64,000 bases of DNA from a virus, in the IMG/VR virus record IMGVR_UViG_3300049927_000072, positions 1 to 64,000 of that record; one strand, 5' to 3'. This document shows positions 6,351 to 48,487 of this stretch, piece after piece. A program made the position numbers and the translations under genes. Every line of letters starts with the position of its first letter. The first letter of the stretch is position 1. The notes beneath the pieces were generated by a model. It was not told the origin of the DNA, did no database searches, and worked only from the letters and a program-made list of their open reading frames with translations.

Positions 6351-7019
6351 TTAGCCGAGCGGATCAGCGTCGGCAGTCTCTTCAACTCCGAGATCATCGC
6401 CTGCGTCGAACTCTGCGGCATCGCCGCCGAAGTCATCTTCCGCAGTCGAGAAGCCGGAGAAGCTTTCACCGTCGGCGAGCTTTTGCAGATTGCCCAGTCC
6501 GATGCTGACACCTTTGCCAAACTTATTATCGAAGGCGTACGGCAGGACGGACGCGCGAGCGTAGCACCCTGCGTAGAAATCACCTTCGTTTTCGATTGTG
6601 ATCGGCTGGCCCTTGCCGTCCACGACATTCGGGCGGCGCTTGGTCGAGGCCATCACGAAGAATGCGATGCCCGGGCCGTAGCCGTCGATGTCTGGCTTGG
6701 TTTCGCCACGCCGATACCAGATTGTCTGGCCCTTCGGAGTGAGCACTGTAGGAAGTCCGCACACCTTGAACGACGGGTTTGCCTTGACCATATCGTTGAG
6801 TGATTTCTTGAACTTCTCAATGCAAACGTCGTCCAGACGCTTGCGGATCGCAGACCACTTTGCTTTTTCGTCATCCGAAAACCCGGATGGTTGGAAAAGT
6901 CCGGTCACCGAGTATCGGCCCGCACTGCCTTCGAATGAAGATTTTTCGAACACGCTCGGAAAGCTAACCCGAAACTTCGGCGTGAGTAGCGTAGCGCTTT
7001 TTCCTTCTGCCATTGTCAT
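6351..7019 (-). CDS. DUF2815-family single-stranded DNA-binding protein
   Basis: RVSFPSVF, FYAGCYARAS, GVSIGLGNLQKLADGE, acidic tail. Confidence 0.88.
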   Translation of the reverse strand: MTMAEGKSATLLTPKFRVSFPSVFEKSSFEGSAGRYSVTGLFQPSGFSDDEKAKWSAIRKRLDDVCIEKFKKSLNDMVKANPSFKVCGLPTVLTPKGQTIWYRRGETKPDIDGYGPGIAFFVMASTKRRPNVVDGKGQPITIENEGDFYAGCYARASVLPYAFDNKFGKGVSIGLGNLQKLADGESFSGFSTAEDDFGGDAAEFDAGDDLGVEETADADPLG

Positions 7020-7071
7020 CCCCCTCTATCTGTTTTGCAATATATCGACGTTGGCGCATTGTGCGTAGCAG

Positions 7072-7251
7072 CTATGTTTTCGGCTTGTCAACTTTTTCGA
7101 CAGGAAAATTTTTTATCGGGACAGCTTGACTTGGATCGGCAGAGCCGCGCAGTCCGTTGCGCATCCACTCACGCAAGTTTGTCATATGCGCCGTGATTTG
7201 TTTGCGCCGCTCTTCGCAGTTATCGCAGTCCTTGAAAGGATTGAAGCTCAT
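7072..7251 (-). CDS. hypothetical protein (CxxC)
   Basis: ATG 7251 overlapping upstream stop. Confidence 0.5.
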   Translation of the reverse strand: MSFNPFKDCDNCEERRKQITAHMTNLREWMRNGLRGSADPSQAVPIKNFPVEKVDKPKT

Positions 7252-7349
7252 TTGACTTCGAACGCTGCAAAGAATAGCAGCCATCCAATGATCCAGTGCT
7301 CGGTTTCGCACCACATATAAAACGCGGCAAGCAAGAGAAGCGGCTCCAT
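7248..7349 (-). CDS. small membrane protein
   Basis: MEPLLLLAAFYMW... hydrophobic 33 aa, GGGGAG SD. Confidence 0.5.
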   Translation of the reverse strand: MEPLLLLAAFYMWCETEHWIIGWLLFFAAFEVK

Positions 7350-7351
7350 TA

Positions 7352-7957
7352 TCAACTCCCCATGGGTGGCAGTACGAAACAGAAAACGTTCATGATCGCC
7401 TGCTCGTAGGTGCTGAGAAAAAGCACGCCGTGTCCTGTCGGGTTGCCATCTTTCGGTGGATTGACGCGCTCTTTGGGCACTTCGACTTTCGTCCCGTTCG
7501 CGATATACGCGCGGATCGACCCATCGGGATAGGTGATCGCGGAACCATCGGTGATAACAGCCGTATAGCTTCCGTCCGGATGTTTCTCGTACAGGTCCGC
7601 CGCATAAGCATCTCCGTAGCCGCAGCAACTATTGTTTGTGCCCGGCACTTTTAGCGTTTCGAACCAGTGCGCCGTCGGATTGTTTGGGTCGAAGCCTTTC
7701 TCCGCCCGCGCGTAGCTCACGAGCAAAATCAAGGCGATCACAATGGCGGCCGAGAGGCCCATGCCCGCAAAGAACGCGCGCACGTATCGAACTTTAGCGT
7801 ATGGGCTCGTGGTGCGGTTAAGCCGGATGCGATCCATCATCGCCTCAAGCTCCGACTTCTCGCGCAATATGCGGCAGCCAGTGCCGCACCAATCGCACTT
7901 GCTATCGGCGCGGCCCTCCCATTCGTGATGGCACTTGAGACACTTCAAGATCGGCAC
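7352..7957 (-). CDS. membrane-anchored protein: N-terminal Zn ribbon, TM helix, Cys-containing periplasmic domain
   Basis: CLKC/CDWC, hydrophobic helix, WF...SCCG..DA domain. Confidence 0.6.
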   Translation of the reverse strand: MPILKCLKCHHEWEGRADSKCDWCGTGCRILREKSELEAMMDRIRLNRTTSPYAKVRYVRAFFAGMGLSAAIVIALILLVSYARAEKGFDPNNPTAHWFETLKVPGTNNSCCGYGDAYAADLYEKHPDGSYTAVITDGSAITYPDGSIRAYIANGTKVEVPKERVNPPKDGNPTGHGVLFLSTYEQAIMNVFCFVLPPMGS

Positions 7958-8224
7958 TTAGGCCACCATCCCTAGGGCCGCCATGTACACTTCGAGGATG
8001 GCGTCTTGCTCGCGCCGCTCGTCAGTGTCGAGCTTGCGCAGTCGGATCAGCGTGCGCAGCGCTTTGATGTCAAGGCCGGTGCCCTTGGCTTCGGCGTAGA
8101 CATCGCGGATGTCGTCAGCCATTGCCCGCTTCTCTTCTTCGAGCCGCTCAATGCGCTCGATAAACGCCTTGATCGAACTCTTTGCGACCTGCATGCCGCT
8201 CTTGATCTCTTCAGCCTTCGCCAT
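7958..8224 (-). CDS. gapR: GapR-like nucleoid-associated protein (DUF2312)
   Basis: [12 protein letters not shown]...[20 protein letters not shown]...YMAALGM signature. Confidence 0.93.
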
Positions 8225-21925: not shown

Positions 21926-22185
21926 GCTTTCACCTTGAGCGCTTCGAGGAATTTGCAGCTGGCGACGTGATCCGCGTCCTGCCAGAAGTGGATACCGCGT
22001 TCGGCGACGCTATCATCCTTGGTTTCAATACCAATGGCGACGCCAAGCTCTCGCGGCCTTACGGCTACGCACATAATGTCGGCACGACTGCGCCCGTGTC
22101 ATTGCTTGGCAGTGAGATTTATTCGCTGCCGCTGCGAACGATCCGGGTCTTGCAGCGTGTCGAGAGCGGCGGGAGGCGCGCGTGA
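21922..22185 (+). CDS. early hypothetical protein
   Basis: ATGA-coupled. Confidence 0.65.
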   Translation: MSFHLERFEEFAAGDVIRVLPEVDTAFGDAIILGFNTNGDAKLSRPYGYAHNVGTTAPVSLLGSEIYSLPLRTIRVLQRVESGGRRA

Positions 22186-22403
22186 GTAACCCGGCATTCC
22201 AGAAACGTCATTACGAAAAAATCGCTGAGGCAATTCAAGAGGCGCGCGGCGACGCTTGCATCCACACCGCGCAGCATCCCGAAGCGATCAACGTTGTCGT
22301 CAATGAACTGGCCGACGCCTTCGCTCGCGATAATGGACAATTCCAGCGGGGCAGGTTCATCGCGGCTTGCGAATGCGGCGCGAACGTGAGAGCGCGGTCA
22401 TGA
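22182..22403 (+). CDS. early protein, HYE.IA...ADAFARDNGQF...RF.AA family; paralog of 35939-36181 body
   Basis: Manual alignment. Confidence 0.7.
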   Translation: MSNPAFQKRHYEKIAEAIQEARGDACIHTAQHPEAINVVVNELADAFARDNGQFQRGRFIAACECGANVRARS

Positions 22404-22702: not shown

Positions 22703-22994
22703 GCAAAATGTATCGCAAGAACCCGCTGCCGGGCCACGCTTACCACACGAAGACGGATGACGAGCTTCGCACGCTCATGTTGGCAGACGACTACGAAGCG
22801 CTCGTGATCCTGCACTGGCACATCGCGCCGCCGGGAGATTGAACCATGAGCGAACGGCTGACACGTTTTTATGTCATGTGCCCGAAGTGCGCCAAGACGA
22901 GTGAGATCGTGTGCACGACGGCGCAACCGCCTGCGGTCAACTGCGGCGACTGCCTTGTGCAGATGAAAGTCATGGGCTCGAAGGCGTTCCGCGA

Positions 22995-32515: not shown

Positions 32516-33283
32516 ATGATTAAACTAGCGAAGCTCGCGACGGTGTCGGCTCTGGCGATCAGTCTCGCCTTGCCAGCATACGCCGCGCCCCCGTCGGGTA
32601 GTAACGCCGGGGGAAACTCCGGCAGTAACTCAAATGCCGGTGGATCGAACGCTGGCGGCAATTCTGGTAGCAACGGCACGCCTCCCGGGCAGGGCGGCGG
32701 ATCACCGAGCAACTCCGGCAGCAACATCGGCAACGTCGGAAATACAGGCAACGGAAATTCCGGCAACGGAATTGGAAACACCGGCCCGGGCAATCCCGGC
32801 CAAGGGAGCGGCGGCACGCAAGGCAACGCTGGCGGCAGTCCCGGCGGTGGCGGTGGCGGTGGCGGTGGCGGTGGGGGTGGCGGTGGCGGCGGTGGTGGCG
32901 GTCACGGACATGGCCATCACCCGCACGGCAAGCCAGCGGCGACCAATCATTCATCCGGTGGCCGTAGCGGCGGACACGGCTCAGCGGCGGCGGCCTACGT
33001 CGGCGCGGCAGTCGGGTGTTCGGCTGTATTTCTGATCGCGGGCGGGGCCGTCAAGGCCGCGCGCGAGAATAAAGAGCTTTCATTCGAGGAAGCCTATTCT
33101 ATCGTCGGAAATTGCTTTCTGCCATTCTTAGGCGGGATGGCAATGGCAAAGCTCGGCCGCGATACCGACAAAGCGGTCTGCAAAAACCCTCACATGCTCG
33201 ACAGCTATTTCCCTGAAACGGCTGGCGAGGTTCGGGCGCGTTTCGTCCGGCAGCATTGCAAGGGAACGCAACTAGCTCAGTAA
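32516..33283 (+). CDS. secreted/membrane Gly-Asn-Ser-rich protein with poly-Gly run
   Basis: Signal peptide (AYA), GN repeats, 20 consecutive Gly, two hydrophobic segments. Confidence 0.75.
   Translation: MIKLAKLATVSALAISLALPAYAAPPSGSNAGGNSGSNSNAGGSNAGGNSGSNGTPPGQGGGSPSNSGSNIGNVGNTGNGNSGNGIGNTGPGNPGQGSGGTQGNAGGSPGGGGGGGGGGGGGGGGGGGGHGHGHHPHGKPAATNHSSGGRSGGHGSAAAAYVGAAVGCSAVFLIAGGAVKAARENKELSFEEAYSIVGNCFLPFLGGMAMAKLGRDTDKAVCKNPHMLDSYFPETAGEVRARFVRQHCKGTQLAQ
32843..32902 (+). repeat. (GGC/GGT)n microsatellite encoding Gly20
   Basis: Direct reading. Confidence 0.9.
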
Positions 33284-35078: not shown

Positions 35079-35388
35079 TGCGCCAACAACGGCAGGGAGA
35101 TTGATATGGAAACAGCTGTGACACCAGCCGAGGCATTGAGGCTGCTTTTAGATCATGTCGATTACACGAAAGATGCGTGTAGTCTTACGGAAAAGGTCGG
35201 CGCTGTTTTGCCGCCAGAGGTTATAAAAATCTGTCACGAAGCATTGTCCGCCGCACTGTGAGGAACAGATGGAAAATTGTGGTCCGCTAACTTGGTGTCT
35301 TCTTTGGCAACTTATTGTGGGGTTTTTATTCTGGCCGACTGTGTTCGCGATAATGGCCGGGATAGCGCGGCTCTTTTACGGTAAATGG

Positions 35389-35421
35389 CCGGTTGCGAGT
35401 TTTCTGAAACGGCGATAAACA
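35389..35421 (+). promoter_or_regulatory. late promoter motif CCGGTTGC...TAAACA
   Basis: Near-identical copy at 36994-37026; related copies before structural genes. Confidence 0.75.
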
Positions 35422-35452
35422 CGGCGGCTCAATTCGGGGGGGGGAGACCGCC

Positions 35453-35689
35453 ATGGGTGTATTAAAAGCCAAGTCGCGCAACGCGCTGCCGTCGAAAGAT
35501 TTCGGCCTGCCGGATACGCGCCAGTATCCAATTGAGAATAAGGCTCACGCGCGCGATGCACTGGCCCGGGACAGTGAAGAGCTTGCCAAGGGCAAATTGA
35601 CCCCGGCACAGGCGGCTCAAATCAGGCACCGGGCCGACGTAGTGCTCGGCGAGACTGACAGCAACTACCACAATCACAGCAAGAAATAA
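35453..35689 (+). CDS. small late protein, LP.KDFGLP..R.YPI....HA..AL (DUF6582-like)
   Basis: Motif recognition. Confidence 0.7.
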   Translation: MGVLKAKSRNALPSKDFGLPDTRQYPIENKAHARDALARDSEELAKGKLTPAQAAQIRHRADVVLGETDSNYHNHSKK

Positions 35690-35717: not shown

Positions 35718-35942
35718 ATGAAAGATGCACAGGGACACGGCAGCGATAGCACTGGCAACCTCGCCCAGACAGGGCGCGGCCCGGCGGCTCATTCGTCGTT
35801 TCTGATCCAGAAATTAAACCCGGCGCTCGTGGGCAACCCGTGGCAGACGGTCGCGCGCATGAAAAACCAAGCGACGGCCGAGCGTGTCGCGCAGCACATG
35901 CGAACCGATGACCGCAGTATAACGAATAGGGTGAGACGATGA
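35718..35942 (+). CDS. MKD-GHGS-tagged small protein 1
   Basis: N-terminus MKDAQGHGSD. Confidence 0.75.
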   Translation: MKDAQGHGSDSTGNLAQTGRGPAAHSSFLIQKLNPALVGNPWQTVARMKNQATAERVAQHMRTDDRSITNRVRR

Positions 35943-36181
35943 AAGACGCACAGGGACACGGCAGCGAAGGCTCCGGCGCTGCGCATCAACGCGGCGTCGA
36001 GAAAGCATCGGCCACGATGACGCGCCAGCATTTCGAGATGATCGCGAGTACGCTCGCGAGCAGTGGAGCGAGTGCGGAGATTGTTAAAAATTTCGCTGAC
36101 AAACTCGCGGCGACAAATCCGCGATTTGATGCGGCTAGGTTCACCGCTGCGGCATCGAAAAGCTCCGGAGCAAAGAAATGA
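35939..36181 (+). CDS. MKD-GHGS-tagged small protein 2 (body paralogous to 22182-22403)
   Basis: MKDAQGHGSE; HFEMIA...FADKLAATNPRFDAARF. Confidence 0.8.
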   Translation: MKDAQGHGSEGSGAAHQRGVEKASATMTRQHFEMIASTLASSGASAEIVKNFADKLAATNPRFDAARFTAAASKSSGAKK

Positions 36182-36429
36182 AAGACGCACAAGGACACGG
36201 CAGCGACGGCAGCGGTAGCTTTATGCCGAAGTCTATCAGCGATGCTCGCGCGGCAGCGGCGCTCGCGCAAAATCATCCGAAGTCCGACACTAGCCCCGTC
36301 ACCGGACGACTTCCGGGTTCCGGAATTGGCATGAGCGCGAATGCGAGCTTCTCGGCTCCGGCGCGTGGTATGAGTTTCTCCGGCAACACCGCAGCGATGC
36401 TCATGCGTCAGAAGATGACAGGGCGATGA
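36178..36429 (+). CDS. MKD-GHGS-tagged small protein 3
   Basis: MKDAQGHGSD. Confidence 0.75.
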   Translation: MKDAQGHGSDGSGSFMPKSISDARAAAALAQNHPKSDTSPVTGRLPGSGIGMSANASFSAPARGMSFSGNTAAMLMRQKMTGR

Positions 36430-36779
36430 AAGACGAACGCGGGCACGGTAGCGATGCGCGCGGGGATATGGCTCGTCAAAATCCGACAGTCGTTTCTATT
36501 TCTGCCATACGCCCGTCTCAAGAAAATCTAGCTTGGATTGCAAAAGGATTAGCCGCCGCCGTTGAGGGTGCTAAGGCTGCACAGGCTGCGTACGGTGGAA
36601 AACTTGTTCCGATAGAAACAGGCGTGGATATGTACCGTCAACAAATTCGGTCTGGCGCGTATATTGCCCCGCTCAGCGTTGACACGAAAATGAACTTGAT
36701 CGACGGGCATACTCGGCTATTAGCCTACAAGGCCGAAGGAATTGCAAAAGTGCCGGTACAAGTCGTTCGAGGGAAATAG
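36426..36779 (+). CDS. MKD-GHGS-tagged ParB/Srx-like domain protein
   Basis: MKDERGHGSD; PLSVD...LIDGHTRL.A....G...VPV. Confidence 0.8.
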   Translation: MKDERGHGSDARGDMARQNPTVVSISAIRPSQENLAWIAKGLAAAVEGAKAAQAAYGGKLVPIETGVDMYRQQIRSGAYIAPLSVDTKMNLIDGHTRLLAYKAEGIAKVPVQVVRGK

Positions 36780-36782
36780 GTC

Positions 36783-36986
36783 ATGGCAAAAAGCAAAGGC
36801 GGGGCAAACGCAAAGTTTGGTCTCAAGAGCGGCAAAGGTGCACCGAGTTCAACCGTGCAAGTGAAGCCGACATATCAGCACGATGTAGTCGAGTGGCTGA
36901 AGCAGGAAGCGGATCGCAACGCGCTCGCGGTCAAACTCGGTCGCACAAAGACGAAAAGCAAATTCGCTCCGAAGTCTTCCCTATAA
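36783..36986 (+). CDS. small Lys-rich protein
   Basis: GAGGG SD. Confidence 0.6.
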   Translation: MAKSKGGANAKFGLKSGKGAPSSTVQVKPTYQHDVVEWLKQEADRNALAVKLGRTKTKSKFAPKSSL

Positions 36987-36993
36987 TAAATTG

Positions 36994-37026
36994 CCGGTTG
37001 CGGCAATATTGAAACGGCGATAAACA
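36994..37026 (+). promoter_or_regulatory. late promoter motif
   Basis: CCGGTTGCGG-N17-TAAACA. Confidence 0.75.
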
Positions 37027-37052
37027 CGGCGGCTTAAATCGGGGGACCGCTC

Positions 37053-37340
37053 ATGAATATCGCACGTTCCGGCGCGCCCAAAGCGCCGCAGACCGAATTT
37101 GCTCCGCGCGACACCATGAAAGACATGACCGAGTATTCGGCCGGTCCGGCGACGCCCGGCTCTGGCCCGGATGCGTCGGCCGCAAATCCGCTTGAGAGTG
37201 AACCTCGCGGGAAGCTTCTGACCAAACAGCCCGGCGCTGTTGGCGCTGCATGGGATATGACGGACGGAGACGGCGACGGCGTCGATCCGACTATTGGTGG
37301 TGACGTGCTCAAGGAAGGCAAGCTGACAGGACGGCCATAA
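37053..37340 (+). CDS. small disordered late protein
   Basis: GGGGGAC SD. Confidence 0.65.
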   Translation: MNIARSGAPKAPQTEFAPRDTMKDMTEYSAGPATPGSGPDASAANPLESEPRGKLLTKQPGAVGAAWDMTDGDGDGVDPTIGGDVLKEGKLTGRP

Positions 37341-37341
37341 G

Positions 37342-37587
37342 ATGAAAGACGAGCGGGGCCACGGGTCAGACAGTCAAGGGGGCGCGGGCATATCGCATCA
37401 AAGCGCAGTGCAGCGGATCGGTGCAACACTCGGAGCGTTCGCAAAAGATGAAAGCGGTTCCGGCAAAACAGTCGGAGAAGCAGCCTTCGAGAAAATGCAC
37501 GACCCGGCGATGATCGCTAACTTAGTCGCCGAACTTGGGTCGCCAGAATTGGCGACCGTTGCGCATCTCGCGCACCTTTTGATTTAA
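37342..37587 (+). CDS. MKD-GHGS-tagged small protein 5
   Basis: MKDERGHGSD. Confidence 0.75.
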   Translation: MKDERGHGSDSQGGAGISHQSAVQRIGATLGAFAKDESGSGKTVGEAAFEKMHDPAMIANLVAELGSPELATVAHLAHLLI

Positions 37588-37594
37588 CGGGGAG

Positions 37595-37825
37595 ATGAAC
37601 ATGGCGACGAACGTTTACGGATCAGACATGCCAGCCGACAATTGCTACGGCGAGAATGGCTACACCGGCCAGTCGAGCGTAGTGCCCGGCCAGCCCGCGG
37701 TTAGCTGCGATCTCGAAGCGAGCAAAGGGCTCGGCTCCGTTCCCGCCATCTCGCAGACCCGCCAAGTAAGCGCAAAGCCGCTCGCGACCCGCGTTGGACG
37801 CGGCGCGTCGGCTCAGTGGAAATAA
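37595..37825 (+). CDS. small late protein
   Basis: GGGGAG SD. Confidence 0.6.
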   Translation: MNMATNVYGSDMPADNCYGENGYTGQSSVVPGQPAVSCDLEASKGLGSVPAISQTRQVSAKPLATRVGRGASAQWK

Positions 37826-37943: not shown

Positions 37944-38633
37944 ATGAGCCGCTCAAGCGATTTGGCGAAAGCGCCCGTGAGCTTGCGAACGCGCGAGCCG
38001 GGCAGACGATATAATCCCAAAACATTGCGGAATGTGGTCAAATGGGCGCGAGAGATGCCCGTCATTCGCGTGATATGCGAGCGCGCTCGGGTCACCCGTG
38101 CTGGTCTAGCCTACTGGATCAAGAAGAGCGCCGCGGGTGAGATTGGGTGTGGTGATGGTTTCGACGTGACTATCAATGGCGAGACGCGCCGTTTTCACGA
38201 TTGGTATTACGATGCGTTCAGCGACGGTGTTGATCGCGTCGAAGAAGCCGCATTCAAACTCGCGAACGGCACGCACATGGAAGCGCTCTCTTACCGGGGC
38301 CGCGTGAATTATCAGGAAGACCCGGACTTGCTCGCGCTCGGCTTCGAAGGGCCGGAAGCGTGGAAGCGAGACAAGAACAATCGTCCAATACCAGAGGCAA
38401 TAGCAAAACTCGACCCGGATATGACGCGCTTCATTCTAAAAGCGCATCGGCCGGAACGGTACATCAATACGCAGAAAATAGATGTAACGCACAAGGGCGG
38501 CGTGCTTGTGGTCGGAACGCAAATGAAGCGCGAAGATTTCGAGAAAAAGTTTGTCGGCAAGTCCGGCACCGCAGACGTATTGGATGTTGAGTTCGAAGTT
38601 GTACCCACTGACGCCCCAGACCCGACGGCCTGA
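37944..38633 (+). CDS. terS: terminase small subunit
   Basis: N-terminal HTH-like region, D.VE..AF..A, F.LKA.RPE.Y; directly upstream of terL. Confidence 0.8.
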   Translation: MSRSSDLAKAPVSLRTREPGRRYNPKTLRNVVKWAREMPVIRVICERARVTRAGLAYWIKKSAAGEIGCGDGFDVTINGETRRFHDWYYDAFSDGVDRVEEAAFKLANGTHMEALSYRGRVNYQEDPDLLALGFEGPEAWKRDKNNRPIPEAIAKLDPDMTRFILKAHRPERYINTQKIDVTHKGGVLVVGTQMKREDFEKKFVGKSGTADVLDVEFEVVPTDAPDPTA

Positions 38634-38634
38634 C

Positions 38635-40191
38635 ATGGGTGTGACCGTAGAAAAATGGCGGCTGAAGGATGGTGTGTGGCGGCCGTGGGTCCGCAACAAC
38701 GAAGGCGAATTGATTGAAGCCATCTGGGCCGCGCAAGCTGGATCGCAAGACGCATTTCTCTCGTGCCCTACATTCGAAACTCTCTACTCCGGAACACGTG
38801 GACCGGGAAAAACTGACGCGCTCTTGATGGACTTCGCGCAGGATGTCGGCAAAGGCTTCGGCTCTAACTGGGTTGGCATTCTCTTCCGGCAGTCGCATCC
38901 GGCGCTGCGAGACGTGATCGAGAAGAGCAAGCGCTGGTATAAGCAAATCTGGGGCGATGCTGCGTTCTACAATGAGATCAAATTTTTCTGGGAATGGGAT
39001 ACCGGCGAGCGGTTGTACTTCTCGCACTTTGCGACCATCTCGGACTACGACAAGTACCACGGCCACGCGTACCCGTGGATCGGTTGGGAAGAATTGACCT
39101 CATGGGCCATGCCGGATTGCTATAAGTCTGCATTCTCACTTTGTCGCTCGCCTGTGCCGGGCATCCCGAAGAGGATACGCGCGACGACCAACCCGCACGG
39201 TGTCGGCCACAACTGGGTCAAGGGTCGTTTCCGGATCATTACAGTATCGCCGGATAAAATCGCAGACCCTGTGATAACGGATGCGAAAGACGAACAAGGT
39301 CGGCCCGAGCCACCGCGTCAAGTAATCTTCGGCTTCCTTGAAGAAAATAAAATCCTGCTACGCGAAGACCCGGAGTATGTCACCAACCTGCGAACAGCGG
39401 CGCGAAGTGAAGCGCAACTGCAAGCGTGGCTTTACGGTTCATGGGACATCGTCGCCGGTGGCATGTTCGACGACATCTGGCACGGCTACAAGACGGACAT
39501 CATCGTTGAGAATTTCCAAATACCGCCAGAGTGGCCAATCTATCGCGCGTACGATCACGGAAGCTCGAAGCCGTTTAGCGTCGGCTGGTATACGGTGAGT
39601 GATGGCTCCGATGTCATTGTCAACGGCAAGGTTCGGGCAACTGTGCCGGGCGATCTATTCCGGATCGCCGAATGGTACGGCTGGCGCGGTGTAGAAAACG
39701 AAGGCACGCGCATGCTCGTCGCAGATATCGCGCGCGGAATTATCCAGCGGGAGATCGATTGGGGATGGCGCTCACGCGACGGCAAGCACGTGCGAGTGAA
39801 ACGCGGACCGGCGGACACGTCCATATTTGACGAAAACAATGGCGTATGTGTCGCGGATGATTTCGAAAAGCCTGTGTTTATCAACGGCATCAAACATCGC
39901 GGCGTCGTATGGGAGCGCGCCGATAAAGGCCCCGGCTCACGCGTGCAAGGTTGGGAGCAAGTCCGGCGACGCTTGAAAGCAACGAAACGGCCGGACGGCG
40001 GCATCCGGGAAGTGCCGAGCCTGTTTATCGATGCCAAATGCAAACAATGGCTGCGCACTGTGCCAAATCTGCCGCGAGACGAAGATAAGATCGATGATGT
40101 GAACACAGAGGCAGAGGATCACGTCGGGGACGAGACACGCTACATGCTGCGCTTCGAGCCAAGAACAATGAAATCGGGGCGCACAATCTAA
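38635..40191 (+). CDS. terL: terminase large subunit
   Basis: GTRGPGKT, WIGWEEL, ATTNPHG.GH.W, nuclease D residues (YDHG, EDHVGDETRY). Confidence 0.95.
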   Translation: MGVTVEKWRLKDGVWRPWVRNNEGELIEAIWAAQAGSQDAFLSCPTFETLYSGTRGPGKTDALLMDFAQDVGKGFGSNWVGILFRQSHPALRDVIEKSKRWYKQIWGDAAFYNEIKFFWEWDTGERLYFSHFATISDYDKYHGHAYPWIGWEELTSWAMPDCYKSAFSLCRSPVPGIPKRIRATTNPHGVGHNWVKGRFRIITVSPDKIADPVITDAKDEQGRPEPPRQVIFGFLEENKILLREDPEYVTNLRTAARSEAQLQAWLYGSWDIVAGGMFDDIWHGYKTDIIVENFQIPPEWPIYRAYDHGSSKPFSVGWYTVSDGSDVIVNGKVRATVPGDLFRIAEWYGWRGVENEGTRMLVADIARGIIQREIDWGWRSRDGKHVRVKRGPADTSIFDENNGVCVADDFEKPVFINGIKHRGVVWERADKGPGSRVQGWEQVRRRLKATKRPDGGIREVPSLFIDAKCKQWLRTVPNLPRDEDKIDDVNTEAEDHVGDETRYMLRFEPRTMKSGRTI

Positions 40192-40247
40192 AGGCCGGTT
40201 GCTAATAAAACTGGAACGTGATTTATCGCAAATTCGCGGGGGACACC

Positions 40248-41900
40248 ATGAGCCTTGAAGACAAACATCCGGAATATATCAATCGCCTAGGTGAATGGAT
40301 ACAAATGGGCGACACCTACGCGGGTGAGCGCGAAATAAAGCGCAAGCGCGTAGACTACCTGCCCCCATGCGAAGGAATGATTGCGGACGGCATGTCCAAT
40401 CCGCAGTCTCCCGGCTGGAAAGACTACGAAGCGTATTTGATGCGGGCCGTGTATCCTGACGTGGTCAAGGATGCGGTTAAGGCGATGGTCGGCATTATGC
40501 ACATGCGACCCGCTACGATCACGCTCCCGAAAAAACTGCAAGGCATGTTCACCAAAGCCACCGCTCAGGGCGAGGGCTTGCAAATGCTTTTGCGTCGGAT
40601 CAATGAGGCGCAACTCAAAAACGGTCGCTGCGGATTGCTGGTCGAAGTGCCGACAGGCAAGGACGCGGCGAGTGCGCTCCCGTATATCGCGTTCTACGAT
40701 GCCGAACGCATCACGAATTGGGACGCTGGCCGATATGAAGAGGGCCAGAACGATTTGGAAATGGTTGTGCTCGACGAGAGCGGACCATCGCGCAAAGGTT
40801 TCACATGGCAGACGGAGCGTAAATTTCGCGTCCTTACGCGCGGGGCTTTGAGCGCTATAAATGCCGACGGAGAATGGCGACCCACCGATACCGACGAATA
40901 CGTGGTCGCAGTGAAAATCAATGAAGTCAACACTCCGACCGCGGGCGATTTTATCACACCACAAATCGCTGGCCGCACACTGAAAAAAATTCCGTTTGTG
41001 TTTATCGGCGCAAACGATCTCGTACCAGAGCCGGAAGTCCCCCCACTAATTGGTCTCAGCAATCTAGCTCTCGCGATCTATCGTGGCGAGGCTGACTATC
41101 GTCAGACCCTGTATTATCAGGGCCAGCAAACGCTCGTTATCATCGGCGGCAACGCTGGTGACACTGACGAGCAAATTCGCACCGGCAATAAGGGCGTGAT
41201 CGACCTCAAGCTTGGCGGCGATGCAAAATTCATTGGCGTTTCCGCGACTGGCCTTGGCGAGATGCGTCAAGCGGTCGAGAATGACAAGGCCAAAGCCGAC
41301 AGTATGGGCGTCGCATTCATGGATGTCGGCAATGCGCGCGGCGAGAGTGGCGAAGCTCTCCGTATTCGAGTGGCCGCACGCACCACGACAATATCATCGA
41401 CCAACCAAGCTGCGGGCGCTGGCCTCGAAGCTGCGTTGAAATTCTGCGCGGAGTGGGTCGGAGAAAATCCGGACGAAGTGAAAGTCGAAGTGCAAACCGA
41501 CTTCGCGGATCAGAGTGTCGCGGGTGCTGCATTGCTTGCGTTCATGCAGGCGAAGCAACTTGGCTTGCCGCTGTCTCTCAAGTCGTTACATCGCACTATG
41601 AAGGCGAACGACTTGACCGACATGACCTTCGAAGAAGAGAGCGACCAAATCAAGGAAGAAGCCGTGACCGCGGTCGAGGATATGGCCGATCTCACGCAAG
41701 TGGCGAGCGACAATAACTTCCTTGACGAGCCAGCCGACACGACAGATGCGACGGCAGGGAATGTGAAAACCACTCCGCCCATCGCTCCCGCCGGGCTTAT
41801 CAAGCCCGGCCAGAGCGTCCCGGTAACCCCGCACGCGCGCGGAACGCCAGTCCCCATGAAAGGCAAAGTCGGCAAAAAAGGTGCGTCGGCTGGAAAGTAA
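40248..41900 (+). CDS. portal protein (DUF4055 type)
   Basis: HPEY, YLP, Y..YL.RA, IPFVFIG, PPL..L, ESGEAL; position after terL. Confidence 0.9.
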   Translation: MSLEDKHPEYINRLGEWIQMGDTYAGEREIKRKRVDYLPPCEGMIADGMSNPQSPGWKDYEAYLMRAVYPDVVKDAVKAMVGIMHMRPATITLPKKLQGMFTKATAQGEGLQMLLRRINEAQLKNGRCGLLVEVPTGKDAASALPYIAFYDAERITNWDAGRYEEGQNDLEMVVLDESGPSRKGFTWQTERKFRVLTRGALSAINADGEWRPTDTDEYVVAVKINEVNTPTAGDFITPQIAGRTLKKIPFVFIGANDLVPEPEVPPLIGLSNLALAIYRGEADYRQTLYYQGQQTLVIIGGNAGDTDEQIRTGNKGVIDLKLGGDAKFIGVSATGLGEMRQAVENDKAKADSMGVAFMDVGNARGESGEALRIRVAARTTTISSTNQAAGAGLEAALKFCAEWVGENPDEVKVEVQTDFADQSVAGAALLAFMQAKQLGLPLSLKSLHRTMKANDLTDMTFEEESDQIKEEAVTAVEDMADLTQVASDNNFLDEPADTTDATAGNVKTTPPIAPAGLIKPGQSVPVTPHARGTPVPMKGKVGKKGASAGK

Positions 41901-41906
41901 AACATC

Positions 41907-42779
41907 ATGGCCTTCGACCCGGATCAACTCCGAGACGAGCATGGCCAGTGGACGAGCGGGGGAGCTTCAACGCCTGAAAAGGCGCAAGAGCAAGCCAACC
42001 GCGTCGCCGCTGGCGCGAAGCCTATTGAGAGCCTCCCGCAAAAGCCAATCAACATAGGCGGCAAGTGGTACGTGCCGGGACCGATAGGTTCGCTGCGCGA
42101 CGCTGCATCCAAGTACATGGCTGAGAGCAAGCTCGACTACAGTCCGGTCACGAAATATGAAAAGCTCGACGAAGAGCGTGCAACCAATATCGCGCAAGCC
42201 TTTGAAGAGATGAAAAACGATCCGACCAATCCGGAAGTGAAAGCATCCTACGAAGCAATGGCGCACGAAGTCATGGGCCAATACCAAGCGCTCGTGGACA
42301 GTGGTGTGAAAGTCGAATGGATCAAGCCGGGCCAACCGGACCCATATGCAGCAACGCCGCGACTTGCTGCGGTGGATGTGAGCGAAAACAAGCATTGGTG
42401 GGGCTTTCCGACCGATCTCGGCTATGGCTCCGGCGATCATACGGACACAAAAGACAATCCGATGCTGCAAAAAGTCGGCATTAAAATTGACGGGCGCGAT
42501 GTCGTGCTTAACGACGTGTTTCGCGTCGTGCATGATATGTATGGTCATTTCAAAGAGGGCAACGGTTTTCGCGCCGCAGGCGAAGATAACGCTTGGCGAT
42601 CTCACGCCTCGATGTTTTCGGAGAAAGCTTTGCCAGCAATGACCGCGGAAACGCGCGGGCAAAATTCGTGGGTAAATTACGGGCCATACGGCTCATACAA
42701 TCGCACGGCGAGCGCGGGAGACACGCATTATGCTCCGCAGAAAATCGGCATCATGCCCAAGTGGACACAGGCGCGATGA
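41907..42779 (+). CDS. putative internal virion protein with RDxxGxW leader and HDxxGH metal-binding-like domain
   Basis: DQLRDEHGQWT; NDVFRVVHDMYGH...GEDNAW..H...ETRGQNSW. Confidence 0.7.
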   Translation: MAFDPDQLRDEHGQWTSGGASTPEKAQEQANRVAAGAKPIESLPQKPINIGGKWYVPGPIGSLRDAASKYMAESKLDYSPVTKYEKLDEERATNIAQAFEEMKNDPTNPEVKASYEAMAHEVMGQYQALVDSGVKVEWIKPGQPDPYAATPRLAAVDVSENKHWWGFPTDLGYGSGDHTDTKDNPMLQKVGIKIDGRDVVLNDVFRVVHDMYGHFKEGNGFRAAGEDNAWRSHASMFSEKALPAMTAETRGQNSWVNYGPYGSYNRTASAGDTHYAPQKIGIMPKWTQAR

Positions 42780-43455: not shown

Positions 43456-44316
43456 ATGGCTAAGCTGAAAACCATCTATGAGACCGCAGAGGAAATTCCC
43501 GAAGGCTTCGCGGACTTGTTCACCGAGCGAAACGGGAAGTTCGAACTAACCGGCATCGAAAACGTCAAAACACAAGGTGACGTTGACCGAGTGGCCGAAG
43601 CTCTCCGTAAAGAAAAGGCCGATCACAAGGCCACCAAAGAGAGCCTTGTAAAATTTCACGGCATCGATCCTGAGACCGTCAATGCTCAACTCGAAGAGCT
43701 TGAGAGCACCAAGACCCAACTCGAAACCCTCACGAAAGGTGGCGCACTCGACGAGGCCAAGCTTGAGCCGATTATCGAGGCTCGCGTCAAGCGCGCTCTC
43801 GGCCCAGTCGAGCGCGAGAAAACTCAGTTGACGCGTGCGCTCGAAGTGTCGAAAAACGAAACCGTAGCTGCACGAACGGAAGTGGATAAGCTCTCTGGCG
43901 TGCTACAGTCTGGCACGATTGAGCGCGCGATCCGCGATGCAGCCATCGCCGCGAAGGTTATCAGCCCTGCCATTGAAGACGCTGTTATGCAGGGCCTTAG
44001 TGTCCTAACTGCCGCCGAAGACGGCGCGATTGTCACCAAGGACAACGTTGCGGGTGTGACCCCGGGCATCAGCGCTGCCGATTGGCTCAAGGACATGCAG
44101 GACAAGCGTCCGCATTGGTGGCCCGTCTCGCAAGGCGGCGGTTCACGCGGCGGCTCGGGCGGCGCGGTTAATCGCGCGGACAACCCGTGGACAAAGGAAG
44201 GCTGGAACATGACCAAGCAAGGTCAGACGGTGAAAACTCTCGGCGAGGCGAAAGCGAAAGCGATGGCTGAGAGCGTCGGCAGCTATATCGGCGCTACCAG
44301 CGCGGCGAAAGTCTGA
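43456..44316 (+). CDS. capsid scaffolding protein
   Basis: Coiled coil, PHWW..SQGGG, C-terminal NPW...WN.T.Q. Confidence 0.85.
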   Translation: MAKLKTIYETAEEIPEGFADLFTERNGKFELTGIENVKTQGDVDRVAEALRKEKADHKATKESLVKFHGIDPETVNAQLEELESTKTQLETLTKGGALDEAKLEPIIEARVKRALGPVEREKTQLTRALEVSKNETVAARTEVDKLSGVLQSGTIERAIRDAAIAAKVISPAIEDAVMQGLSVLTAAEDGAIVTKDNVAGVTPGISAADWLKDMQDKRPHWWPVSQGGGSRGGSGGAVNRADNPWTKEGWNMTKQGQTVKTLGEAKAKAMAESVGSYIGATSAAKV

Positions 44317-44386: not shown

Positions 44387-44983
44387 ATGGCCGACATCCT
44401 AAGCAACCCGTGGGCCGCAGACACGTGGCACCTAGGCCAGCAAGCACAGTATGAGCAGCGCTACGGCACTCCGGCGGCAGAGCGCATGGCGCGCATCGCC
44501 GGTACGAAAATCGGCGGACTGCCGAAAAAGCCTGCGGGACAGAACAAAATCTACATCATTCAAGGCAAGCGTGGACCGGCCGGGCGTGACGGTTCATCTG
44601 GCGCTGGCGCGGGCACGCACGAGTTTCTCGGCTTTTACGCCGCGGGCACATTCGGCGATGCGCAGGTATTCACGGCATCCGCAACACCGCGCGCGACTTC
44701 ATTTCCGACGATCAGCCCGCCAGATGAGAGCCGCGCAACGTGTCGCGTCGCACCGACAAGTGATGTGAGTTTTTATCTCGTCAGTGATGTTGCAGAATTT
44801 ATGGGCGACGGATCGACGCTAATTTGCACAATCACGTTCGCTGCCAACTCGCTCGCCGGATCGTTTGTCTACGGCTCGCCAATAAGCGTTCCTATCGATA
44901 CTGCACTTTTTATCGTGTGCCCACTCACTGCCGATCCCGCGATCACAGATGTGCAGATCGTGTTTTGTGGTGATCCGACGTGA
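44387..44983 (+). CDS. virion protein: scaffold-like N-terminal motif, short collagen-like linker, beta-sandwich paralogous to 60701 C-terminus
   Basis: Manual alignments. Confidence 0.7.
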   Translation: MADILSNPWAADTWHLGQQAQYEQRYGTPAAERMARIAGTKIGGLPKKPAGQNKIYIIQGKRGPAGRDGSSGAGAGTHEFLGFYAAGTFGDAQVFTASATPRATSFPTISPPDESRATCRVAPTSDVSFYLVSDVAEFMGDGSTLICTITFAANSLAGSFVYGSPISVPIDTALFIVCPLTADPAITDVQIVFCGDPT

Positions 44984-46392
44984 CAGCTTCATTCGTATCG
45001 GCCGGTGCTTTTACCAATTCCGCCGGAGCAACATCAAGCTCGCCTGCGCTGCCAGCCGGTTACACCGGGAGCGCGCTGCTTATTGCATATGTCGTCACTG
45101 CAAATGCGAAGACGATTGCTGTATCCGCCGGATGGACAAAAGGTCAAGCCGAGCCGTCCGGCGCAACTTTGCAAAAGTCATGTTGGGCGTGGCGCGTCGC
45201 CGACGGATCGGAAACGGCCTGCGTGTTCTCGTGGACGAGCAACACCGCGTGCGTATCCGGCTGTAATGCCTATACAGGCGCGCCCGCAACTTCGCCGATA
45301 GCAGGATCAGCGACCCCGGCTGACGGTACATCAAATCCGAACGTCGGTACTTATACGACAACTGTGGCAAACGCGCTGCTAGTAGAGATTGCACTTAGCC
45401 AAGCGGCGAACGTCACCATCACGGAAGCAAATACCGGCTGGTCAGCGGCAGACAGTTCTTTCAAAGCAGCATCGCGGCAATCGGTCTACACCTTCCACGA
45501 CATCGTTTCAACCTCTGGTACGGTTGTCAGTTTCGGCACAGGCGACGGGACAGGTTCGCAGAAAATCGATTTCGTTGTCGAACTGAAGGCCGACCTTGTT
45601 ACTGAGACTTCAACCATCGACATGACGTTCGCGGCTATGACGCAAGCGGCTACCGTGGCCGAAGCCGAACCATCGACAATCGGCATGACCCTTGCAAACA
45701 CTCTCTTGCAAGAGATCGACGCGTCGAATGATGGCCTTAATGTAACAATCGCCACGACGTTAGCGAATATCTCGCAAGAGATAGACGCGACTGAAGTCGT
45801 GACTGGCACAGTTGACCAAACTTTTCCGGTTATGCAAGAAGAGATCGATGTGGCCGACAGCCCCGATGCCAGCATTGGGATGACGCTCTCTGGCGCGCTG
45901 CAAGAACTGCTCATAACGACGGAGATCGTGATCGAGAGCATAGACCAGACGCTTCCGGGGGCGCTGCAAGAGTTACTAGCCGCGACGGAAGTTGAAATAA
46001 CGTCGGTAAATACAGTGCTTTTCTCGCTCTCGGATCAAGAGCTAGACGGGAGCGTCAGCGGCCCCGCTCGCATTACGCAGATACTGCCGGGCGTACTACA
46101 AGAGGTTTTCGCGGCTACCGAGATCGAGATCACGGCGTTGGATCAAGTGCTGCCGGGTTTGATTGTCCTCGACTTCGAGGCGGATCAATCGCCTCCGGTA
46201 GTTATAAGATCGAATATCCCGTTCGCCTTGTCGATGGATGTCGAAGCAATAATTGCTGACGACGCGCAGATCGACATGACCTTCGTGAGCATCTCTGCTC
46301 CGCCGGTGGGCATGCACGTTGACATGACGCTCGGCGGCTCGATCTCTTGCGCGAGCGGCGTGTCACGTTCCGGATGGTGGGCCGGAGAGTAA
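44980..46392 (+). CDS. putative fibre scaffold/adhesin: N-terminal beta domain plus about 11 repeats of ~21-22 aa
   Basis: Repeats I..TL....QE. Confidence 0.7.
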   Translation: MTASFVSAGAFTNSAGATSSSPALPAGYTGSALLIAYVVTANAKTIAVSAGWTKGQAEPSGATLQKSCWAWRVADGSETACVFSWTSNTACVSGCNAYTGAPATSPIAGSATPADGTSNPNVGTYTTTVANALLVEIALSQAANVTITEANTGWSAADSSFKAASRQSVYTFHDIVSTSGTVVSFGTGDGTGSQKIDFVVELKADLVTETSTIDMTFAAMTQAATVAEAEPSTIGMTLANTLLQEIDASNDGLNVTIATTLANISQEIDATEVVTGTVDQTFPVMQEEIDVADSPDASIGMTLSGALQELLITTEIVIESIDQTLPGALQELLAATEVEITSVNTVLFSLSDQELDGSVSGPARITQILPGVLQEVFAATEIEITALDQVLPGLIVLDFEADQSPPVVIRSNIPFALSMDVEAIIADDAQIDMTFVSISAPPVGMHVDMTLGGSISCASGVSRSGWWAGE

Positions 46393-46452
46393 ACACCCGT
46401 TGCGAATTTCTGAAACCGACGATAAAACGCCAAGCTCAATTAGGGGGACATC

Positions 46453-46887
46453 ATGACAGCCGCACCACAATACAGCGAAGCCGCAGCACAGGCGGCCCTT
46501 GACGCACTTCTCGCCAAACTCAATGTCGGCGGTGCGGGCGTGATCAAAATTTTCGACGGCACCATCCCGGCCAACTGCGAAGCCGCAGATGCTGGTACCC
46601 GGCTCGCCACGTTGACGCTCAGTGCAACGGCATTCCCATCTTCAGCGACAAATGCCTCGCCGCGCGGTGCGAAAGCAACTGCAAGCGCAATTACGTCGGA
46701 TACCAACGCCGCAGCCACGGGCACCGCTCAGTATTTTCGGGCCTATGATCACACTGGCACCACGTGCGTCATTCAAGGCAATTGCGGCACTTCTAGCGCC
46801 GACATGATCCTGAATACCACATCCATCGCGTCCGGCTCGACCGTCTCGTGCTCGTCGTGGACGGTAACGCTCCCGGACGGCGGCTAA
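46453..46887 (+). CDS. putative fibre subunit (paralog of 62650)
   Basis: GGAG..KI, D..AA..GTA, TS.AD..L; own promoter at 46396. Confidence 0.75.
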   Translation: MTAAPQYSEAAAQAALDALLAKLNVGGAGVIKIFDGTIPANCEAADAGTRLATLTLSATAFPSSATNASPRGAKATASAITSDTNAAATGTAQYFRAYDHTGTTCVIQGNCGTSSADMILNTTSIASGSTVSCSSWTVTLPDGG

Positions 46888-47389: not shown

Positions 47390-48487
47390 ATGACTACCGT
47401 CTCCACCACCATTTCTGACGTTATCGTCCCGTCAGTCTTTACGCCCTACACTCAGCAACTTACGATGGAAAAGACTGCTCTTATCCAGAGCGGCATCGCT
47501 TCGCGCGATGATTTCCTCGACAAGCTGCTCGCGGGCGGGGGCCTGACCTTCACCGTTCCGTCATGGCAGGACATCGGCGATCCCGCCGAAAACGTGTCCA
47601 GCGATGACCCGGACACTCTCTCTACCCCGAACAAGACGCAGGCTTCGGCCGAAGTCGCGGTGCGCCTCTCGCGTAACGCCTCTTGGAGCACGATGCGTCT
47701 CGCCACGGCCCTTGCCGGTGCCGACCCGATGCAGTCAATTGCATCGCGCGTCTCCGACTACTGGGTCCGTCGCCTTCAGCGCGCCTTCGTGGCGGTTGCT
47801 AACGGCGTGTTCGCGGACAACGCTCAAGCCGATCCGACCAATGGTCGCTCTGGCAACGTCGGCCTGACTGCCGCTTATGGCACGCAGAATGACTTGACGC
47901 ACTCGATCATCGGTGGCTCGTTCTCCGATGGCGTGACAAACTTCTCGGCTGCGGCGTTCATTGACACCGCAACCCTGCTCGGCGACGCGGCCGAAGACGT
48001 GACGGCAGTTGTAATGCACTCGGTTGTTTACAGCCGTGCGCAAAAGAACAACCTGATCGACTTCATCCCGGACAGCGAAGGGAAAATCAACATCCCGACG
48101 TTCCTTGGACGGCGCGTGATCGTTGACGACGGCATGCCTAACCCGGCTGGCGACAGCGGAAACGGTGCGCAGACTGCTTCGGGCATCTATCACACTTGGC
48201 TTGTTGGCCCGGGCGCGTTCCGCCTCGGCGTCGGCACCCCGGTTGTGCCTACCGAAGTGTTCCGCTACCCGGATCGCGGCAACGGCGCTGGATCGGACAT
48301 CCTCTATAACCGTGTCGAGTGGTCTATCCACCCGGTCGGCCACGCCTACATCGGAACGCCTTCAACCGAAGGTGGCCCGACGAACGCTTCGACGAGCAAC
48401 AACCTCGCCGCTGCGGCTTCGTGGGTCCGTGTGTTCCCCGAGCGCAAGCAAATCAAGCTTGCTCGGCTAATCACTCGCGAGAGCTAG
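47390..48487 (+). CDS. major capsid protein (HK97 fold, YuA-like)
   Basis: T.ISDVIVP.VFTPY, L.G.DPM..IA.RV..YW, MHS.VY, TFLGRRVIVDD. Confidence 0.92.
   Translation: MTTVSTTISDVIVPSVFTPYTQQLTMEKTALIQSGIASRDDFLDKLLAGGGLTFTVPSWQDIGDPAENVSSDDPDTLSTPNKTQASAEVAVRLSRNASWSTMRLATALAGADPMQSIASRVSDYWVRRLQRAFVAVANGVFADNAQADPTNGRSGNVGLTAAYGTQNDLTHSIIGGSFSDGVTNFSAAAFIDTATLLGDAAEDVTAVVMHSVVYSRAQKNNLIDFIPDSEGKINIPTFLGRRVIVDDGMPNPAGDSGNGAQTASGIYHTWLVGPGAFRLGVGTPVVPTEVFRYPDRGNGAGSDILYNRVEWSIHPVGHAYIGTPSTEGGPTNASTSNNLAAAASWVRVFPERKQIKLARLITRES

Follow-up and report, generated by a model that had tools for sequence, protein, structure and literature searches.

A Short N-Terminal Peptide Shared by Unrelated Phage Proteins: A Candidate Label for Cargo Carried in the Head

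Why would five small phage genes whose products are otherwise unrelated all open with nearly the same ten amino acids? The question is posed by a virus record from IMG/VR (IMGVR_UViG_3300049927_000072; 75,884 bases, estimated to be 71% complete), the first 64 kb of which form the window analyzed here. Between positions 35718 and 37587, directly upstream of the genes for the small terminase subunit (terS, starting at 37944), the large terminase subunit (TerL), and the portal protein, and on the same strand, lie five open reading frames (ORFs) that begin MKD[AE][QR]GHGS[DE], hereafter the tag. The original prediction, made from the letters of the window, had described both this shared start and its position just ahead of terS, and both hold. 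We find the same peptide in other phages on a wide variety of bodies, as we call the protein beyond the tag, most often at the very N-terminus. Judged from sequence, there is about an even chance that it is a portable label for head-internal proteins that are co-injected with the DNA.

All five tagged genes lie on the forward strand, and none of their products contains cysteine. Gene 1 (35718–35942; 74 amino acids [aa], isoelectric point [pI] 11.6) and gene 3 (36178–36429; 83 aa, pI 11, with a recurring HPKS..P motif) start MKDAQGHGSD; gene 2 (35939–36181; 80 aa, of a body family recognized by Q(R)RH[FY]E) starts MKDAQGHGSE; and gene 4 (36426–36779; 117 aa) and gene 5 (37342–37587; 81 aa, pI 5.6, with a conserved HLAHxL C-terminus) start MKDERGHGSD. 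A six-frame scan of all 75,884 bases found KD..GHGS exactly five times, each time directly after methionine. At the DNA level, the tag pattern gave five forward matches and no reverse matches, and a reversed-pattern control gave none. The five copies differ at synonymous positions (GAT/GAC, CAG/CAA, CGC/CGG, GGA/GGG/GGC, GGC/GGT/GGG, AGC/TCA). Three ATGA overlaps join genes 1 to 4, and gene 5 starts 1 nucleotide (nt) past the stop of ORF 37053–37340. The translational coupling of four genes that had been pointed out is therefore real, but a Met-Lys start (ATGAAR) produces an ATGA overlap automatically.

The five bodies were said to be unrelated, and within the window they are. Genes 1, 2, 4, and 5 nevertheless match tagged genes in related phages and belong to recurring body families (the body of gene 1, for instance, is matched in tagged genes of five related loci); gene 3 has only a weak match beyond the tag, over 42 aligned residues. 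Gene 4, the only one of the five with a recognizable fold, carries a ParB N-terminal–like domain and matches phrog_620 (E 4e-6). In its AF2 model, which is of moderate quality (mean predicted local distance difference test score [pLDDT] 69), the body is folded and residues 4–17, in the tag, have a pLDDT below 50. Foldseek matched the model to the pNOB8 ParB-N structure 5k5d (E 1.6e-4, TM-score 0.52), and also to sulfiredoxin, Noc, and ParB. The IDGHTR segment of gene 4 aligns with EDGENR and RDGSHR of homologues that bear PF02195, and on these matches gene 4 has the ParB/sulfiredoxin fold with its DGxxR segment.

Two untagged ORFs of the early region, both on the forward strand, have tagged kin elsewhere. 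ORF 22182–22403 is matched by a tagged protein of another phage at E 9e-5 and falls in the body family of gene 2, with three cysteines in 73 aa versus none in gene 2. The kinship of these two genes had been predicted; it stands through the tagged relative and fails in a direct BLASTP comparison, which gave no alignment. A second ORF, at about 22717–22779, is related to a body family that is tagged in other phages (E 6e-5).

How far does the tag extend beyond this record? An initial IMG/VR scan used a degenerate DNA pattern made without the ATG, and a broader scan yielded 116 stretches. In the ATG-free scan, the motif in other contigs stood nearly always directly after a methionine. The retrieved loci hold 290 distinct copies, of which 246 have an ATG one or two codons before the lysine (MKD.. 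or M[APS]KD..); in roughly ten others, GTG or TTG stands there. The resulting logo reads M(A)KDA[KL]GHGS[NDE]x[RH]GG, where the invariance of K, D, G, H, G, and S among the 290 copies follows by construction from the regular expression and the scan pattern. Every synonymous codon is used at each fixed residue, including both serine families (AGY and TCN), so selection acts on the peptide, as had been proposed from the five copies of the window. The motif spans genomes of 39%–56% guanine plus cytosine (GC), and its core residues are the same in 39% and 56% GC genomes that have unrelated head modules. A hidden Markov model (HMM) of the tag, searched against 1.84e9 representative sequences, gave 195 matches at E ≤ 1e-3. 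The original prediction had suggested such a search to see whether the tag is always N-terminal, and the answer is largely yes: among the best 150 matches, roughly 85% begin at residue 1 or 2, and the remainder are mostly multi-copy polyproteins.

Contigs related to the window (TerL 61%–64% and portal 63%–65% identical) share a common layout: a homologue of the gene at 35453, the tagged array, homologues of the genes at 37053 and 37595, then terS, TerL, and portal. Arrays in these phages hold six to 13 tagged genes in the same slot before terS, and complete genomes of 119 kb and 127 kb have 13 and eight copies, respectively. Among cultured phages, a tblastn search of 50,697 phage records with two 30-aa tag queries gave no match at E ≤ 10, a test limited by low-complexity filtering and by how short the queries were. 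NP1 and MMDA13, the cultured phages closest to the window in capsid protein (about 59% identity), have no array in the annotated head-gene stretches examined. A scan of GTDB returned only eight stretches, mostly single tagged ORFs in soil Alphaproteobacteria metagenome-assembled genomes (MAGs), too few to name a host. One of these, on a 1.96-Mb alphaproteobacterial MAG contig, has a single tagged ORF (about 1441–1833 of the retrieved locus) some 5 kb from a VapE-like primase/helicase gene (6702–8000), which suggests a prophage or satellite carrying one tagged gene. No Pfam family is common to 87 representative tagged proteins and none covers the tag; a PDB profile search with the tag gave a best match at E = 1, which was irrelevant; and literature searches for GHGS-type strings returned unrelated papers only, with none on the tag. 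It is most likely a previously undescribed motif.

The bodies behind the tag are diverse. Tagged proteins are 22–204 aa long (median 126), and the bodies of 234 of them fall into 63 loose or 111 strict clusters. Many are unique; a few families come back repeatedly, in an order kept throughout the lineage, so the array is in part a core gene set and not purely accessory, and arrays differ by single-gene insertions. A look-up of ten protein clusters gave a single name, "hypothetical protein." Pfam searches with the 87 representatives found ART-PolyVal, an ADP-ribosyltransferase (ART) domain, in three proteins (E 1.4e-12), as well as an Arr-type ART (Arr-ms), GNAT, ParB_N, and a HEIGH metallopeptidase; some arrays hold a tagged HEIGH peptidase. 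The suggestion that the cargo includes anti-defense proteins draws on these domain types in the relatives, and within the window it can lean on one recognizable fold among five bodies. The broader proposal of a modular address label on variable cargo gains from selection on the peptide, from the N-terminal place of about 85% of the 290 copies, from the 63 loose clusters, and from the effector-type enzymes.

Composition sets the tagged proteins apart. They are basic and rich in glycine and alanine, and in the bodies of 231 of them cysteine makes up 0.03% of residues; 98% have none at all, and 94% have a pI above 8. In the window, cysteine stands at 1.8% in early-region proteins and 0.79% in structural proteins; this comparison with curated window genes is fairer than one with the ORF control set, which includes spurious frames. 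The window's capsid protein, scaffold, 642-aa tail protein, and the product of 41907–42779, just past the portal gene, are all without cysteine. Avoidance of cysteine is indirect evidence, and would fit proteins that stay in the extracellular particle or have to pass the tail unfolded.

In several phages the motif is found inside long proteins. In a 197-kb jumbo phage (G006) and its relatives, polyproteins of 1,078–1,590 aa contain three to four copies each, every one following a helix end such as ..EFVAK[AET], and internal copies at polyprotein joints follow a conserved ..[FVL]xK[AET] helix end. An XkdF-type head maturation protease (PF14550, E 2e-15; phrog_3017, E 3e-12) forms the start of two proteins, and three motif-opened modules come after it; a search of IMG/VR for loci related to the XkdF fusion P0002 and to the NCBI polyprotein P0016 found none. 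A 1,380-aa protein with four copies has a weak local head-morphogenesis match (phrog_4728, E 1.4e-5, residues 720–764), and ART-like segments and a MuF-type HPxCRC element, both judged by eye, hint weakly that it is MuF-like and ART-bearing. Other proteins place a leader of 15–25 residues ending in ..KA ahead of the motif. In a 256-aa protein the tag occurs twice, at residues 2 and 112, as if two neighboring array genes had merged into one ORF; this may be an intermediate between array and polyprotein.

A 160-kb, 39% GC, T4-like phage (G001) offers a further arrangement. It encodes a T4 gp21 protease (PF03420, E 2e-40), and two of its proteins start MKSFKGYLLE-AKDAQGHGSD and MKSFTTFIKE-AKDAQGHGSE. 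In the ten-residue leaders, positions 4 and 7 are bulky and positions 8–10 read L/I-x-E, which is the rule for the T4 capsid-targeting sequence (CTS) and its cleavage by gp21 (PMC9026906). The motif would then form the mature N-terminus of a capsid-targeted protein, and since it follows a separate CTS here, it may act at a step other than capsid targeting.

Is this tag the only one of its kind? KD..GHG heads 81 of 90 close homologues of the commonest array body; the remaining full-length homologues begin with M[AT][FY]NPNQxRAKxGxW or M(A)WSDxxRxAxxEARR, and in the six proteins compared all three tags lead into the same AHxxGVxxVG segment. The alignments thus show tag types to be swappable on one body family. 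An IMG/VR scan for WSDxxRxAxxEARR found 51 distinct copies, 26 of them as N-terminal MAWSD.. starts. In five loci, MAWSDAARxAAxEARR opens arrays of three to four small cysteine-free ORFs with unrelated bodies, two of the bodies in such arrays being ART-like by eye, and in two more loci internal copies occur at joints of long ORFs after ..EK[AV]. In the window itself, the gene after portal (41907–42779, forward strand) opens with a second tag type (MAFDPDQLRDEHGQWTSGG). Its consensus, M[AT]FDPNExRDxHGRWTxGG, is found on differing bodies (39–796 aa) in ten related loci, and by this evidence the lineage of the window has FDPNExRDxHGRW as a second tag system. The post-portal body, a polyvalent-protein domain, is the sole protein common to the window phage and the jumbo phage G006, which also uses HPRVPxGxxGGGEF.

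That body and the commonest array body are adjacent domains of gp102 in the head-gene cluster of Mycobacterium phage Rizal, and in Planktothrix phage Pag-Yong1 the former is also part of a "large polyvalent protein" of 2,773 aa, in which residues 1–2,733 include no cysteine. In Rizal, the adjoining head-cluster genes gp101 (629 aa, no cysteine) and gp102 (retrieved locus L191, 3777–6957) share an N-terminal leader, TAREQFEMLxPW..REA, possibly another lineage-specific leader, in this case in a cultured phage.

Several known systems resemble this one in part. The T4 CTS is an N-terminal peptide of about ten residues on IPI, IPII, IPIII, and Alt, which loads diverse cargo into the head for injection, and the T4 internal proteins include anti-restriction or host-modifying ones (PMC3012670, PMC9026906). 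The parallel drawn originally with these proteins holds in one respect: a short N-terminal peptide is common to otherwise unrelated small proteins. It fails in others. The tag has no sequence likeness to the T4 CTS and no L/I-x-E site, a search of array-bearing genomes for a gp21-type protease came up empty, and the tag is invariant across phages with unrelated head proteins. The tagged genes form a tandem array beside the terminase genes, with packaging of their products a prediction, and in the T4-like phage the tag sits behind a separate CTS-like leader.

The cargo is closer to that of the polyvalent proteins of phages and conjugative elements, polypeptides with two to 15 disparate domains each that are predicted to be packaged and injected (Iyer, Burroughs, Anand, de Souza, and Aravind 2017, PMC5512222). 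Both systems have a repertoire of ART-PolyVal, ParB-like, zincin peptidase, and GNAT domains, both adjoin portal and terminase genes, and delivery with the DNA is predicted for both; the match of domains suggests that the cargo repertoire is that of the polyvalent proteins as given there. Effector domains lie next to portal or terminase genes in the relatives, and within the window in gene 4 only. Unlike polyvalent proteins, the tagged proteins of the window are 74–117 aa with at most one domain, each a single small gene with its own tag; multi-module forms of the motif exist in other phages. Term searches of PMC5512222 and its passages on processing show no such short motif.

The FDPNExRDxHGRW and MAWSDAARxAAxEARR leaders are alike in plan, with a short conserved N-terminus, variable bodies, arrays by head genes, and copies at polyprotein joints, and Pfam DUF7211 can be likened, by its description only, as a shared N-terminal leader near phage head genes; the tag is unrelated in sequence to all three. 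Encapsulin cargo-loading peptides are also short and disordered and direct diverse cargo into an HK97-fold shell. Their usual place is the C-terminus, and the shell protein has a known pocket for them; the tag, by contrast, is N-terminal and has no predicted contact of this kind.

What the tag might bind or be cut by was approached through the head genes and proteases of these phages. The five array-bearing genomes, the window's included, gave no S78, S78_2, S77, or ClpP-type protease match, and PF03420 (gp21-type) is absent from two genomes searched (G000 and G008) and present only in the T4-like G001. Canonical cleavage is thus unlikely in the array-bearing genomes, and at the extreme N-terminus there is nothing ahead of the tag to remove. 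A complex prediction with the capsid protein, the scaffold, and a 45-residue tag alignment scored 0.00 against a mark of 0.32, which speaks neither for binding nor against it. Two sets of window proteins were considered as partners and set aside: the product of 35453–35689, homologues of which occur in unrelated contexts in N4-like and Komagataeibacter phages and are absent from G006 and G001, and the products of 44387–44983 and 44980–46392, which read, from their sequences, as decoration or fibre proteins.

The reading we favor is that MKD(A/E)xGHGS(D/E/N) would be a portable short linear motif marking the start of modules kept inside the head and probably delivered with the DNA. In the window's lineage, the modules would be encoded one per small gene, in an array that is transcribed directly ahead of terS, TerL, and portal; other phages would string these modules into head-associated polyproteins with the motif at each joint. 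The tag is presumably unstructured and the cargo behind it variable. We infer that the tag is what makes cargo dock in the procapsid or stay poised for ejection, and that injection of this cargo follows. The idea of an address label is helped by the arrays beside the packaging genes, by the motif in head-protease and MuF-type polyproteins, and by its place behind T4-type leaders.

Several observations weigh against this reading. The several tagged families kept in fixed order might simply be core proteins whose N-terminus has a common function; gene 5 is acidic and the other tagged genes are not; the tag was not found in cultured phages by the tblastn search above; and no receptor for it was found among the window candidates considered. 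A near-identical motif in phages with unrelated head proteins is hard to square with docking on a fast-evolving scaffold, and suggests that the partner may be generic rather than a lineage-specific scaffold. In G001, which has a separate CTS ahead of the motif, something other than the motif may do the targeting. It is because of this invariance and this coexisting CTS, which hint at a role beyond simple scaffold binding, that we hold the label reading at no better than an even balance.

If the motif is not an address, what else could it be? One idea, which we think improbable, is that it is a processing junction, the P' side of a protease site, with stand-alone genes starting at the would-be cut and targeting left to other features. 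Internal copies at polyprotein joints after the ..[FVL]xK[AET] helix end, the XkdF protease fusions, the motif directly after the predicted gp21 cut in the T4-like phage, and the tagged HEIGH peptidase of some arrays are all as this idea would have them. Yet a site that serves only to be cut needs no conservation in genes that are never cut, and six core residues are invariant at the extreme N-terminus, where there is nothing to cleave, while the five array-bearing genomes lack an S78, S78_2, S77, or ClpP-type match. An equally doubtful idea is that the motif acts after delivery or in the infected cell, binding a conserved host component or nucleic acid or controlling the stability or activity of the effector, so that its link to the head is indirect. 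The core residues, identical in 39% and 56% GC genomes with unrelated head modules, would suit such a role, as would the separate CTS that the T4-like phage already has, and invariant K, D, H, and S flanked by glycine resemble a peptide that binds a specific partner or a metal. On the other side, there is no known candidate partner, three sequence-unrelated tags swapping on one body fit a lineage-specific address better than a universal host target, and cysteine avoidance and the head-polyprotein context point to the virion.

The two remaining explanations dispense with a label altogether. The tagged genes might be an unpackaged, co-regulated family of small basic, partly disordered proteins (DNA-binding or nucleoid-remodeling, for example) with a common N-terminus by descent. 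We consider this quite unlikely. It would account for basic, Gly/Ala-rich proteins, core families in conserved order, and the untagged relatives in the early region (22182–22403 and about 22717), but not for the motif in head-protease and MuF-type proteins. Nor does it account for tagged bodies that are 98% cysteine-free when early genes have 1.8% cysteine and 22182–22403 has three. The bodies are unrelated folds that include enzymes, which makes common descent of whole genes unlikely. We give very little credence to a feature of DNA or translation, such as a boundary for cassette-swap recombination or a start region for ATGA coupling. Met-Lys starts do make ATGA overlaps, tags 1 to 3 share 24–51 nt at 69%–82% identity with the ribosome-binding region included, and arrays differ by single-gene insertions. 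Against this, all synonymous codons occur at every conserved residue (AGY and TCN for serine), the peptide is conserved across 39%–56% GC, and the motif also turns up within long ORFs and in MAKD.. starts, where no ATGA overlap arises.

The surroundings of the array bear on its expression. A 59-nt element (GTTGCG..TGAAAC..CGATAAA..GGGGG, about 10 nt before the ATG) occurs three times in the record, as repeat comparison shows: at 35382–35440 (forward) before the array-opening gene, at 36987–37045 (forward) before the conserved gene 37053–37340, and at 46389–46447 before the head gene 46453–46887. The late-promoter copies of the original prediction thus become three copies of an element, the third before a head gene; it is a candidate shared promoter or leader, possibly a promoter plus ribosome-binding site. 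Its placement would fit co-regulation of the array with the head genes. The array-opening gene (35453–35689, forward, 78 aa) matches phrog_16160 (E 4.6e-19) and, weakly, DUF6582, and has homologues just upstream of tagged arrays in five related loci. Between genes 4 and 5 lie an untagged small basic ORF (36783–36986, forward, 67 aa) with no family match and the gene 37053–37340 (forward, 95 aa), which follows the array lineage-wide, with homologues in seven loci. A 76-aa gene (37595–37825, forward) with homologues in related loci precedes terS.

Downstream, on the forward strand, come terS (37944–38633; phrog_4044, E 6e-5; conserved in four related loci), TerL (38551–40191; phrog_979), and portal (40218–41900; phrog_145, E 1e-108; DUF4055). 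The scaffold (43456–44316) and the capsid protein (starting at 47390) are on the same strand as the array. Between these two, the 198-aa protein of 44387–44983 has an N-terminus (NPWAADTWHLGQQAQ..) resembling a C-terminal segment of the scaffold (NPWTKEGWNMTKQGQ..), a likeness that may reflect a common segment for capsid binding; a short collagen-like stretch comes next. Upstream of the array, 32516–33283 (forward) encodes 255 aa with a signal-peptide-like start (MIKLAKLATVSALAISLALPAYA), a very long Gly/Ser/Asn-rich region, a poly-Gly run, HGHGHH, and a hydrophobic segment.

Going one step further, a handful of interchangeable, ultra-short N-terminal address motifs may serve tailed phages to mark the proteins that travel in the head and are delivered into the host. 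This would be a general loading and injection code distinct from the T4 CTS, with KDAxGHGS, FDPNExRDxHGRW, WSDxxRxAxxEARR, and HPRxPxGxxGGGEF as candidates. We offer this extension tentatively and regard it as somewhat doubtful. Within it, each motif is nearly invariant among phages that have unrelated capsid, scaffold, and portal proteins, and the partner may therefore be some general part of the machinery for packaging or ejection, or else the packaged DNA, and not a scaffold peculiar to one lineage. New here are the swapping of tags on one body, the WSD-tag arrays, the second tag after portal, the protease survey, and the link to polyvalent proteins of cultured phages. Virion-internal proteins in general might be recognized with the help of one simple signature, the near-total lack of cysteine seen in tagged proteins.

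If the tag does load cargo, phages would have a widespread signal for protein loading in addition to the T4 CTS, one of only about nine residues that occurs where no prohead protease was detected. Such a tag would account for the splitting of polyvalent proteins into arrays of single genes, and its small size would suit it to the packaging of foreign proteins into phage heads. It would also provide a sequence handle for injected phage effectors in metagenomes, among them ADP-ribosyltransferases, acetyltransferases, ParB-like proteins, and peptidases, many of which are likely to be counter-defense or host-takeover factors.

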